A DNA stretch of 64,000 bases, taken from assembly GCF_003334305.1 (NCBI RefSeq), contig NZ_QOWS01000011.1, one strand, 5' to 3'. The position numbers and the translations under genes are program-made. Origin of the DNA: Escherichia coli. GTDB taxonomy: Bacteria > Pseudomonadota > Gammaproteobacteria > Enterobacterales > Enterobacteriaceae. Below, piece by piece: positions 34,935 through 45,414 of this stretch (positions are counted from its first letter, which is position 1; every line of letters begins with the position of its first letter). The notes under the pieces were generated by a model. It worked only from the letters and a program-made list of their open reading frames with translations, had not been told where the DNA came from and made no database searches.

Positions 34935-35732
34935 TTAATGAACATTCGTCGCCGAAAACGAGTCTGTATCATTAGCGTGATGCAGTCTCTGCAAAGGATC
35001 TTGTTGATAAAATTGGCAGAAACGTTGCCACAATGAAGGGAAACGAGGAGCAAAAAGTTCTGGGGCGCTAAAGAAATATTCAGAAAGTACGGCAAAACAT
35101 TCAGCAGGATCACTGGCAGCATAAGCATCGATGCTCGCCGCATTCTCGCCAACCAATTCGATTTCTTCCTGAATGTTGTTCATTGCAGCATGAAGATCGT
35201 GTTCCCAGCCAGCAACCTCACGCAACGGAATAAAGGGAACTCCGCTGGCGCGATCGCCGTTACGGGTGTCCAGCTTATGAGCGACTTCATGAATAATCAG
35301 GTTAAAACCAGAAGCATCAAAAGAATCTTGTATATCCAACCAGTTCAAAACGATAGGCCCTTGCTGCCAGCTCTGACCTGACTGAACAATACGTTGGTTA
35401 TGCACCAGACCGATATCGTCTTCCCATTCATCATCGACCACAAATGGCGCAGGATAAATTAAGACTTCATGAAAACCATCCAGCCATTCCAGTCCTAACT
35501 CCAGAACGGGCAGGCAAAATAGAAGTGCTATCCGGCAGCTTCTTAATGAATTCAGCTCAAAGCCCTGTAAAGGAACAAGCCGTTTTTGCTGTAAAAAACG
35601 TTCGGCAAGAGTGACTAATTTGCTTTGTTCCTGTTCCGTCAGACACGTTAAAAGGGGGATCGATAGTGCTTCCTGCCAGGGAAGGGCAGTTTGATGTGCT
35701 GATTCTTGTACTTTCCAGGGCCACTTAATCAT
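34935..35732 (-). CDS. mtfA: Mlc titration factor A (zinc-dependent peptidase-like)
   Basis: 265 aa from the internal ATG ([19 protein letters not shown]...) with HEVAH zinc motif; the track ORF extends 13 codons upstream. Confidence 0.9.
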
Positions 35733-43366: not shown

Positions 43367-44482
43367 TTAGAACTGGTAGACGATACCAACTGCAAACTGG
43401 TCATCAGCTGCTGCGCCAGTAATGGCGGCGTCATCTTTATCCAGCATGTTGAATTTGTATGCAGTATAAACGTTCATGTTCTTATTAAAGTAGTACCAGG
43501 TACCAACTTCAATGTAGTTCACACGGTCAGCGTCAACATATCTATGTCCAGGTACCCCTTTGATATCTTTACCTTTAGAGTACACATAACCTAAGGACGG
43601 ACGCAGACCAAAGTCGAATTGATACTGAACAACCGCTTCAAAGTTCTGGGTTTCATTGATAAGTTGATCACGCATTATTGTATTGCCTTCTCGATCGGCA
43701 ACACCTGTATCAATAGAACCCGGAGTCATATTACGAGTTTCGCCGTACATTACAGCTGCGTAGACATTGTTCGCGTCATACTTTGCAGCCAATGACCACA
43801 GTTCAGCATTTGAACCGTTTCCATCGGCAACTTGATCGTTGGTGCGATCAGATTTGCTATATGCACCAACGATACCAAAACCATTGATGTTATAGTCTAC
43901 AGACAACGCATAGCCGTCACCATTTTGTTTCTTAGTGCTACGGTTGCTGTTTTTGCCTTGGTACTGAATCGCAAAATCAAGACCATCAACCAGGCCAAAG
44001 AAATCATAGTTACGGTAGGTTGCAACACCGTTGGTACGACCATTCATGAAGTTGTCAGCGGAAGCCCAGGAATCGCCACCCCATTCAACTAACATATCGG
44101 TATAAGCTGCGGCATCATAAGCAACACCGTAGTTACGGCCATAGTCAAATGATCCTAACTCGTTATATTTCAAACCGGCGAAGGTTAAACGGGTTTTTTC
44201 CTGGTTTTCACCTTCGGGCTTGCTGGCGTCGAGGTTGTATTCAAACTGACCAAAACCAGTCAGTTCGCTGGTGATTTGGGTTTCACCTTTAACACCGAAA
44301 CGAGCATAGGAGGTATCTTCGTTTTCGCTGTTATTATCATCAGTATTTGACCAGATGCGTTCGCCAACCATCTTGCCGTAGAAATCAACTTTATTGCCAT
44401 CTTTATTATAAATTTCAGCCGCATTTGCTGCGCCAGCAACTAATAACGCCGGGACCAGCATTGCCAGAACTTTTCTTTTCAT
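43367..44482 (-). CDS. yedS: OmpC/OmpF-family outer-membrane porin (intact)
   Basis: 371 aa from [21 protein letters not shown]; porin-like beta-strand periodicity and C-terminal ...AVGIVYQF. Confidence 0.85.
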
Positions 44483-44793
44483 TATGTATTCCCTTGTGAT
44501 TATAATCTTCATGAATATATCAATAAGTGCCGTTATCCAAAAAAAAGCACATTTGGATACTATTCTATGAAGTTCATTTTATTTTAAGGATTACATGTAA
44601 CAAATGTATTTAAAAGATTTCAAAGTGTTTCTAATATATTTAATATAATTCAGGATTATGAATTCTGAATATAAACATTCATGAAGATTATAAATGTATA
44701 TCAATAAGTTATGAGTTGAACTGAAAGATAGGGAGTATCAATGATCGTTGCGCTAAACGGCTGGTGTGATCACGCGCACATTAATGAAGGCAT

Positions 44794-44884
44794 AAAAAAA
44801 AGCCGGCATCATGCCGGCCCAAAAAATATAAACAAGACGATAAAAGGCTAATAACGGAGGCATCATGACACAGAATAATAAAAA
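44794..44884 (-). ncRNA. rseX: Small RNA in the yedS-yedR spacer, probably RseX; ends approximate
   Basis: Minus-strand hairpin GCCGGC-AUGAU-GCCGGC followed by U8 with no CDS upstream; TACAAT-like -10 box (44896-44891) about 90 nt upstream; contains an anti-Shine-Dalgarno stretch (CAUGAUGCCUCC). RseX maps to this spacer in K-12 (from memory). Confidence 0.5.
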
Positions 44885-45030
44885 GGTATAATTGTAATCA
44901 GTGCTAATATATTGATTGAATGAATTAATAAAGCCGATATCAAAGATAAATAAAATCGCTCAAAACGATTTTTCTTGTATTCACTGCCGTTGCGCAAAAA
45001 TTATCTATTTGTTCAAAAAATGATTGAGTC

Positions 45031-45414
45031 TTGACTGGCTCATTCAATGTGGAAAAATGTGATTTTTATCACATAATAGTACTAAGTCTGAATTTTCCGG
45101 GTTATCTCAAAATGGAATACGGTTCGACAAAGATGGAAGAGAGACTCTCTCGCAGCCCTGGTGGCAAACTGGCTTTGTGGGCTTTCTATACATGGTGTGG
45201 CTATTTCGTCTGGGCAATGGCGCGTTACATCTGGGTGATGAGCCGGATCCCCGATGCCCCCGTGTCGGGATTTGAAAGCGATTTAGGCTCTACCGCGGGA
45301 AAGTGGTTAGGGGCACTGGTCGGATTTTTATTTATGGCTCTGGTCGGGGCATTGTTAGGCAGCATTGCCTGGTACACCCGACCTCGTCCCGCACGTAGCA
45401 GACGCTATGAATAA
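45031..45414 (+). CDS. yedR: Small inner-membrane protein
   Basis: 127-aa ORF with two hydrophobic segments; alternative starts at GTG 45049 or ATG 45112. Confidence 0.75.
   Translation: MTGSFNVEKCDFYHIIVLSLNFPGYLKMEYGSTKMEERLSRSPGGKLALWAFYTWCGYFVWAMARYIWVMSRIPDAPVSGFESDLGSTAGKWLGALVGFLFMALVGALLGSIAWYTRPRPARSRRYE

Follow-up and report, generated by a model that had tools for sequence, protein, structure and literature searches.

The closest described counterparts of the control region analyzed here are those of the porin genes ompF and ompC, in which three tandem 20-bp boxes of phased 10-bp half-sites (F1–F3 in ompF, C1–C3 in ompC) are accompanied, further upstream, by IHF sites in ompF and by an IHF site in ompC. 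Two other kinds of element have some features in common with it: fimS-type elements, in which short inverted repeats surround a promoter segment of a few hundred bp, and the footprints of MITEs and IS elements. A further porin gene, Salmonella ompS1, is quiescent and is under the control of OmpR, H-NS/StpA and LeuO (PMC4264507); upstream of it, two copies are reported of TGTWACAW, a motif derived from OmpR ChIP-seq peaks in S. Typhi (PMC3586657).

We examined the region upstream of the porin gene yedS in a stretch of Escherichia coli DNA of 64,000 nt (the window). Window positions 44400–45050 are 100% identical to E. coli strain A7, in which yedS is annotated as 'porin'; its homologues carry the Pfam domain Porin_1. 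The locus is composed as follows.

43367..44482, minus strand: the yedS porin gene (open reading frame and translation), an intact 371-aa allele with its ATG at 44482–44480.
44795..44884, minus strand, the same as yedS: the rseX small RNA gene (Rfam RF01401, 99 bits, E 9e-14).
44800–44820, minus strand: the rseX terminator (terminator scan), nine pairs followed by a T run, strong.
Other side of the spacer from yedS, plus strand: drpB (yedR).

The MG1655 annotation of rseX in this spacer agrees with the window. Since rseX lies in the yedS–drpB spacer and delimits the yedS control region on its upstream side, that region comprises 311 nt (44483 to 44794), with an A+T content of 72%. The adjacent rseX is reported to be silenced by H-NS, with StpA as a backup (PMC8313858). 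A link between YedS and carbapenem susceptibility has been described, and the yedS–yedR spacer serves microbial source tracking (PMC11267920).

Like ompF and ompC, yedS is preceded by three tandem 20-bp boxes with phased 10-bp half-sites and, further upstream in AT-rich DNA, by an IHF-consensus site, and rseX adjoins yedS as micF adjoins ompC, a regulatory small RNA gene standing next to a porin gene in both cases. The following elements could be assigned.

44593..44652, minus strand: three tandem 20-bp OmpR-like boxes, TGAATTATAT/TAAATATATT, AGAAACACTT/TGAAATCTTT and TAAATACATT/TGTTACATGT.
44562..44567, minus strand: putative −10 hexamer TAGAAT, chosen for its position beside the OmpR-like boxes and its cross-genus conservation.
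44699..44711, plus strand: predicted IHF binding site, an exact match to WATCAANNNNTTR (TATCAATAAGTTA).
44765..44780: CRP site TGTGA-N6-GCACA, between the rseX terminator and the distal repeat block described below; half-sites invariant in Escherichia.

OmpR would probably bind at the three boxes, whose phased half-sites (GAAAC/GAAAT/ATAC/GTTAC), of the kind usual in OmpR sites, we read from the sequence and which are almost invariant across Escherichia and largely retained in Citrobacter and Klebsiella. A match to TGTWACAW at 44595–44603 falls within the last OmpR-like unit; the window holds six such matches against 5.8 expected, that is, the motif is not enriched. From TAGAAT at 44567–44562 we infer a transcription start near 44555 and thus a leader of about 73 nt (44483–44555), about as long as those of ompF and ompC. 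Relative to this putative start, the boxes would occupy about −97 to −38, next to a weak −35 element, and the IHF consensus about −144 to −156. For 'yedS', an in vitro CRP footprint is on record at MG1655 2033766 (ggTGTGAtcaggcGCACAtta; PMC12871828), to which the CRP site corresponds. On the yedS strand there is also a TATAAT hexamer at 44686–44691, from which the CRP site would fall at about −93, the geometry of class I CRP activation. We set aside an upstream promoter on this hexamer, which has a poor −35 and becomes CATAAA or TATAAA in other Escherichia lineages. A marbox-like sequence, ACGGCACTTATTGATATATT, over the proximal direct repeat (about 12 of the 14 specified positions by eye) was likewise set aside, as it is misplaced for any plausible −10.

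With Salmonella ompS1, yedS has in common the TGTWACAW OmpR motif, naming, a high A+T content and H-NS silencing, which is documented for the adjacent rseX; in some annotations the K-12-type yedS allele bears the name 'outer membrane protein S1'. The upstream regions of ompF and yedS can be aligned around the Shine-Dalgarno sequence and start codon only. Wider homology between them, including a 9-mer (ACTTATTGA) present in both leaders, was rejected, because the OmpR-box regions scored no higher than shuffles.

Superimposed on this layout are two exact repeats, which have one copy each in a block close to yedS (the proximal block, 44500–44528) and in a block upstream of the boxes (the distal block, 44677–44709).

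44500..44516: proximal inverted-repeat arm, exact; TTATAATCTTCATGAAT on the plus strand, ATTCATGAAGATTATAA in the yedS sense; 18–34 nt upstream of the yedS ATG.
44516..44528: proximal direct-repeat copy, exact; TATATCAATAAGT, in the yedS sense ACTTATTGATATA.
44677..44693: distal inverted-repeat arm, exact; ATTCATGAAGATTATAA on the plus strand, in variable DNA.
44697..44709: distal direct-repeat copy, exact.

The arms of the 17-nt inverted repeat are separated by 160 nt, and the copies of the 13-nt direct repeat are spaced 181 nt apart. Relative to the putative start, the proximal block would extend from +28 to +56 (direct-repeat copy +28 to +40, arm +40 to +56) and the distal block from −122 to −154 (arm −122 to −138, direct-repeat copy −142 to −154). 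A first-pass annotation of this DNA had noted two copies of shared blocks in shuffled order, about 180 bp apart, together with an inverted repeat that it took to be 15 bp long. The repeats and the blocks are there, but the inverted repeat measures 17 nt, and the swapped order is no separate observation: it is the inverted repeat itself, because TTCATGAA and TTATAA are each self-complementary, such that the reverse complement of ATTCATGAA-GA-TTATAA gives the same words in swapped order.

When the 311-nt intergenic stretch was shuffled 5,000 times with dinucleotides preserved, an inverted repeat of at least 17 nt with non-overlapping arms never occurred (longest, 15), and a direct repeat of at least 13 nt occurred in 17. 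The inverted repeat is also the sole exact one of at least 14 nt in the 64-kb window whose arms lie more than about 20 nt apart. Thus, for this haplotype only, the repeat is beyond chance. To our knowledge, neither ompF nor ompC carries this repeat pair. Elsewhere in the window, TTCATGAA occurs at 35286 and 35466, likewise 180 bp apart; both copies are within coding DNA, and we regard this pair as unrelated. We also considered TTCAT/ATGAA as a recurring site (8 occurrences in the spacer against 2.5 expected, a number reached in 3 of 2,000 shuffles) and rejected it, since the motif was picked post hoc and fails multiple-testing correction over all pentamers.

We then compared strains. Among 5,426 complete E. 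coli genomes, 4,902 contain the spacer. The exact 33-nt distal block is limited to 55 of about 4,900 (~1%); 147 match it at 95–99% identity and 2,916 at 90–95%, with 31/33 as the mode. When 60-nt queries were used, just 54 genomes matched the distal one at 99% identity or more, as against 3,852 of 4,880 for the proximal one; the whole 651-nt query reached at least 99% in 52. With the exact distal block in 55 genomes and 52 genomes at least 99% identical over 651 nt, the perfect repeat is the property of one haplotype with a frequency of about 1%. The strain comparison thus shows the proximal block to be widely kept, but not the perfect pair.

The distal block of K-12 has two mismatches, and these are precisely the two bases that break the two repeats. 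At position 44707, the window has A and K-12 has T, so that ACTTATTG of the window becomes ACATATTG in the yedS sense of K-12; at 44686, the window has G and K-12 has A, and TAATCTTC, again in the yedS sense, becomes TAATTTTC. G at 44686, where the other aligned Escherichia sequences have T, A or C, completes the inverted repeat to 17/17, and A at 44707 completes the direct repeat to 13/13. The common E. coli allele carries a 16/17 inverted and a 12/13 direct repeat.

For a wider comparison we collected orthologous spacers from E. coli SCPM-O-B-8794, strain E69, two Escherichia sp. genomes, E. whittamii and E. albertii, and, through exact-protein look-up, from E. fergusonii, Citrobacter and one genome of the Klebsiella oxytoca group. 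The gene order dcm-yedJ-(drpB)-porin is kept in all loci compared, with drpB uncalled in both of the Citrobacter loci. Across Escherichia there is hardly any variation between a point about 170 nt 5′ of the ATG and at least nucleotide 43 of the coding sequence (roughly 44440–44652, ~210 bp). Identity between the window and E. albertii varies along the region as follows.

44483–44646, core and leader: 159/164.
Proximal block: 32/32.
First 43 nt of the coding sequence: 43/43.
Distal block: 23/33.
Spacer 44712–44794: 53/83 (~36% divergence).

The two arms of the inverted repeat differ in conservation. The proximal arm is invariant in 12 of 12 aligned Escherichia sequences, and Citrobacter and Klebsiella retain ATTCAT-N4-AATTAT alone. 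The distal arm matches the proximal arm of its own genome to a varying extent.

This haplotype: 17/17.
K-12 and NDM_11.16372: 16/17.
Other sampled E. coli and Escherichia sp. MOD1-EC7003: 13–15/17.
Divergent lineages SCPM-O-B-8794, E69 and E1V33, E. whittamii and E. albertii: 10–14/17.
E. fergusonii: 9/17.
Citrobacter and Klebsiella: 6–7/17.

Within Escherichia, ATAA and TGAAT are the only invariant parts of the distal arm. The proximal direct-repeat copy is invariant in Escherichia save for strain E69; it is altered in E. fergusonii and missing from Citrobacter and Klebsiella, though these retain the promoter core. In a shuffle test across species with a looser ungapped score that also counts palindromes, neither repeat rose above shuffles in a B2-like E. 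coli strain, E. albertii, Citrobacter or Klebsiella, and E. whittamii and Escherichia sp. E1V33 gave marginal direct-repeat scores only (9 and 11 of 300 shuffles equal or better). The inverted repeat of E. fergusonii scored 18 under this same palindrome-counting score. Duplicated sites for one regulator do not fit this pattern, in which the proximal member is invariant, the distal arm drifts from 17 to 6/17 and the pair is not conserved. Thus, the blocks have not been kept together as a pair. At the same time, the 16/17 and 12/13 of the common allele and the 10–14/17 of other Escherichia, as against 6–7/17 in other genera, show that some of the similarity predates E. coli, and two recent SNPs alone do not explain all of it.

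What is constrained in the distal block follows another pattern. WATCAA-N4-TTR is the classical core consensus of IHF, and TATCAATAAGTTA is one of five exact matches to it in the 64 kb, where 2.15 are expected. At −230 to −233 from the ATG, an exact consensus is present in 15 of 19 orthologous regions, including that of E. fergusonii, with CTTA, CATA, TATA, CGCA, CACA, CTAT, CTCA or GCCA as the N4 on the yedS-sense strand. Strain KK19-02, E. albertii and Citrobacter, the exceptions, have one-mismatch versions, and by eye the aligned Klebsiella sequence also comes near the consensus in a one-mismatch form. Among 12 Escherichia sequences, 2 of 108 cells of the alignment vary at consensus positions, 15 of 48 in the N4 and 95 of 360 in the flanks. 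The difference between consensus and N4 (Fisher p = 3e-7) is indicative only, as the sequences are related and the cells not phylogenetically independent. A constrained consensus around a free N4 is the signature expected of an IHF site, which this element is predicted to be. The strongest conserved island in the fast-evolving distal DNA coincides with the direct repeat; the SNP that perfects this repeat, at 44707, is at one of the free N4 positions. The proximal copy of the direct repeat departs from the consensus at TTR (TATCAA-TAAG-TGC). A literature search found no published IHF data on 44699–44711.

Several other accounts of the repeat pair have to be weighed against these data. Perfect 17-bp inverted repeats bracketing exactly the segment with the putative promoter could flip those 160 bp, OmpR boxes and promoter included, and so make yedS phase-variable as fimS is, to whose short repeats and segment of a few hundred bp the arrangement is similar. 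We inverted 44517–44676 artificially and searched the result against the 5,426 complete E. coli genomes: 0 of the 4,902 covered the inverted 160-bp segment to at least 80%, and the best match was in the native orientation, in two pieces with 75% coverage. In strain A7, the annotation of the flanking 9 kb on each side lists no gene for a recombinase, integrase or transposase; the genes there include mtfA, zinT, msrPQ, hiuH, hprRS, hchA, the porin gene, drpB, yedJ, dcm, vsr, yedA, yedI, dgcQ and rcsA. Unlike fimS, then, yedS shows neither an alternative orientation nor a nearby recombinase gene, and its inverted repeat is imperfect in about 99% of strains; RecA-mediated recombination, for its part, usually needs more than 17 bp. 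Such a switch is scarcely credible. A mobile element or dispersed repeat was rejected as well, since 60-nt stretches spanning each block occur at a median of one place per genome and neither target-site duplications nor mobile-element ends accompany them; further copies of the blocks in the 64-kb window are chance look-alikes in coding DNA with two to three mismatches. The 13-bp direct repeat bracketing about 168 bp is a likeness to MITE/IS footprints, but unlike in these, the bracketed 168 bp are a conserved promoter, present in all genera examined, with no terminal inverted repeats at its boundaries. The rearrangement scar that the first-pass annotation had proposed as one option thus finds no positive support in this single-copy sequence. 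Another account places the pairing in RNA. If rseX were read through, or if transcription started upstream of 44693, the distal arm might pair with the leader arm beside the Shine-Dalgarno sequence and control translation or stability, and this stem does appear in the minimum-free-energy fold of a hypothetical 342-nt transcript. The distal arm, however, lies upstream of the putative start and behind the strong rseX terminator, the stem is neither conserved nor accompanied by compensatory changes, and folding of the leader by itself does not surpass that of shuffles (z = 0.35). A cross-genus alignment fold of the leader yielded an invariant 5-bp UUCAU/AUGAA pairing only, with no covariation. 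We consider a long-range stem highly improbable. Two small RNA partners of the leader were rejected: pairing with RseX (−27.9 kcal/mol) was no better than the shuffle mean (−29.7), and pairing with the MicF seed region gave −11.1 kcal/mol against a shuffle mean of −12.6 and −27.4 for ompF as the positive control. MicF is presumably a regulator of yedS, but direct pairing in this allele does not support this.

The two remaining accounts take the likeness of the blocks to reflect a common origin or a common ligand. About 30 bp of the leader may have been copied some 180 bp upstream with the 3′ half inverted, in the Escherichia ancestor after the split from E. fergusonii, and the distal copy would have drifted ever since, this haplotype having come close to the original by chance. 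The step from 6–9/17 in E. fergusonii, Citrobacter and Klebsiella to 10–16/17 in most Escherichia agrees with this, as do the roughly three to four differences per lineage, about what a once-perfect copy would show at ~36% spacer divergence. Yet the IHF core is found at the same position in E. fergusonii and, with one mismatch, in Citrobacter and Klebsiella; since it was already present outside Escherichia, the direct-repeat half was not made by an Escherichia-specific duplication. Furthermore, the ancestral distal arm, estimated by eye, matched at only ~13–16/17, with majority states differing from the proximal arm at several positions; there are no target-site duplications, mobile-element ends or second copy elsewhere, and we know of no mechanism that would yield a direct copy of 13 bp beside an inverted copy of the neighboring 17 bp. 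An old duplication is therefore improbable, slightly more so than an operator pair, in which one protein, H-NS/StpA or a dimeric regulator of the TTCATGAA palindromes, binds both blocks, loops out the promoter and silences yedS; this, too, we consider unlikely. The blocks do bracket the putative promoter, at a spacing of 170–181 bp (~16–17 helical turns), and TGAAT and ATAA of the distal arm, invariant within Escherichia, mirror words of the proximal arm. TCGWTWAATT is the high-affinity (nucleation) consensus of H-NS, and both direct-repeat copies overlap 8/10 matches to it. Near-matches to this motif number 9 in 44474–45007 against about 1.5 from the window average, a roughly sixfold density that is expected at 72% A+T; they are weak. 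Silencing of rseX by H-NS/StpA (PMC8313858) and control of Salmonella ompS1 by H-NS/StpA and LeuO (PMC4264507) speak for such a pair, and so does a genomic SELEX peak of the LysR-type regulator PgrR listed as yedX/yedS (PMC5934670). Against it, the distal arm is unconserved beyond Escherichia, Citrobacter and Klebsiella lack the proximal direct-repeat copy, distal substitutions are unmatched by proximal ones, the proximal copy never varying, and constraint in the distal block follows the IHF consensus rather than the repeat. Less likely still is the specific form in which the TTCATGAA blocks, at about −130 and +45, truly act as paired operators through which a silencer of the H-NS/StpA or LeuO/PgrR type loops out the promoter. 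Were this the case, the distal SNPs would tune the tightness of yedS silencing, with the tightest loop in this haplotype, and would thereby affect the permeability of the outer membrane, the entry of carbapenems included; the SNPs lie in a region used as a host-source marker.

We favor, at a probability of about 0.58, the explanation that each block belongs to a different, ordinary cis-regulatory element of yedS, an ompS1-type porin gene, the two not being copies of one unit, and that the long exact repeat is a coincidence of these two elements in an ordinary OmpR/IHF-type porin control region. The distal block overlaps the predicted IHF site just upstream of the three OmpR-type boxes. By analogy with ompF and ompC, IHF would bend the AT-rich upstream DNA and might thereby modulate OmpR-dependent activation, H-NS silencing or both. 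The proximal block would lie in the 5′ untranslated leader and may be constrained for promoter-proximal or mRNA-level reasons. The likeness of the two would come from AT-rich words common to both regions (TTGATA, TATAAT/ATAA and TTCAT/ATGAA, two of them self-complementary), which two SNPs, both at positions that vary elsewhere (44686 and 44707), would have sharpened to 17/17 and 13/13. The first-pass suggestion of duplicated regulator binding sites is thus borne out loosely, in that the distal block overlaps an IHF consensus and the proximal one lies in a conserved leader, but not as regards a duplicated pair; the motif comparison with porin regulators that it had called for brought up the OmpR-like boxes and the IHF consensus.

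The repeats, their distribution among strains and species, the footprint of the IHF consensus and the absence of an inversion are observed here; what is new for the poorly studied yedS is the predicted IHF site and the probable promoter layout. As this locus illustrates, a statistically striking repeat of a single genome may vanish when viewed across a population. Our analysis provides a sequence-level map of yedS control, with a CRP site, an IHF consensus, three OmpR-like boxes and a leader conserved genus-wide. The map sorts natural polymorphisms into those at constrained and those at free positions, and in showing the distal block to be mostly free-drifting DNA round a putative IHF core, it may aid the reading of SNPs in the source-tracking marker.

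Sequence comparison showed that the segment 44440-44652 (~210 bp), which reaches into the start of the yedS porin gene, is near-invariant among Escherichia species. Between E. coli and E. albertii, identity across the segment was 159/164 plus 43/43, as against just ~64% in the spacer upstream of it. Past this conserved start, the yedS coding sequence exists as highly divergent alleles, a 371-aa OmpF-like form in the window and a 395-aa K-12-type form; in K-12-type strains, the BLAST alignment to the window starts only ~110 nt inside the coding sequence, near 44373. The segment and the elements of the yedS-drpB spacer are as follows.

Features of the yedS-drpB region
44440-44652: conserved segment taking in the OmpR-like boxes and the inferred promoter, together with the leader and the initial 43 nt of the yedS coding sequence
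44647-44664: inverted repeat AATTCAT...ATGAATT, close upstream of the first OmpR-like box
44737-44745: 9-bp palindrome ATCATTGAT, between a CRP site and an IHF consensus
44765-44780 and ~45058-45073: CRP sites, both matching in vitro Footprint-seq entries (PMC12871828)
44865-44892, plus strand: near-consensus sigma-70 promoter ATGACA-16-TATAAT (11/12 positions match)
44905-44917, minus strand: second exact IHF consensus, AATCAATATATTA, close upstream of the rseX start

The E. fergusonii locus carries a tandem pair of porin genes (2501-3586 and 4163-5272 in the coordinates of that locus) downstream of drpB, whereas E. coli has a single porin gene at that position.

The arms of the inverted repeat at 44647-44664 are kept in Escherichia and its centre is variable: the K-12 version is a perfect 18-bp palindrome, AATTCATAATTATGAATT, and the window version has two central mismatches. 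This repeat may be the site for a dimeric regulator, perhaps of the LysR type; a genomic SELEX peak of PgrR is listed as yedX/yedS (PMC5934670). The shorter palindrome ATCATTGAT forms a conserved island amid the variable spacer. As for CRP, one of the two in vitro entries is listed for yedS and the other for yedR (PMC12871828), and the site at 44765-44780 would lie at about -93 if the start were directed by the TATAAT (44686-44691, yedS strand) of the distal block, the repeat copy far from yedS. Elsewhere in the window, TTCATGAA also occurs at 35286 and 35466, 180 bp apart, within coding DNA ~9 kb away; this pair appears to be coincidental and unrelated.

Around the small RNA gene rseX, the sigma-70-like promoter runs antisense across the rseX 5′ end and is oriented toward drpB. 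The IHF consensus at 44905-44917 is kept in about half of the sampled E. coli sequences. Since RseX reportedly represses ihfB translation (PMC8313858), a feedback loop connecting IHF, RseX and yedS is conceivable.
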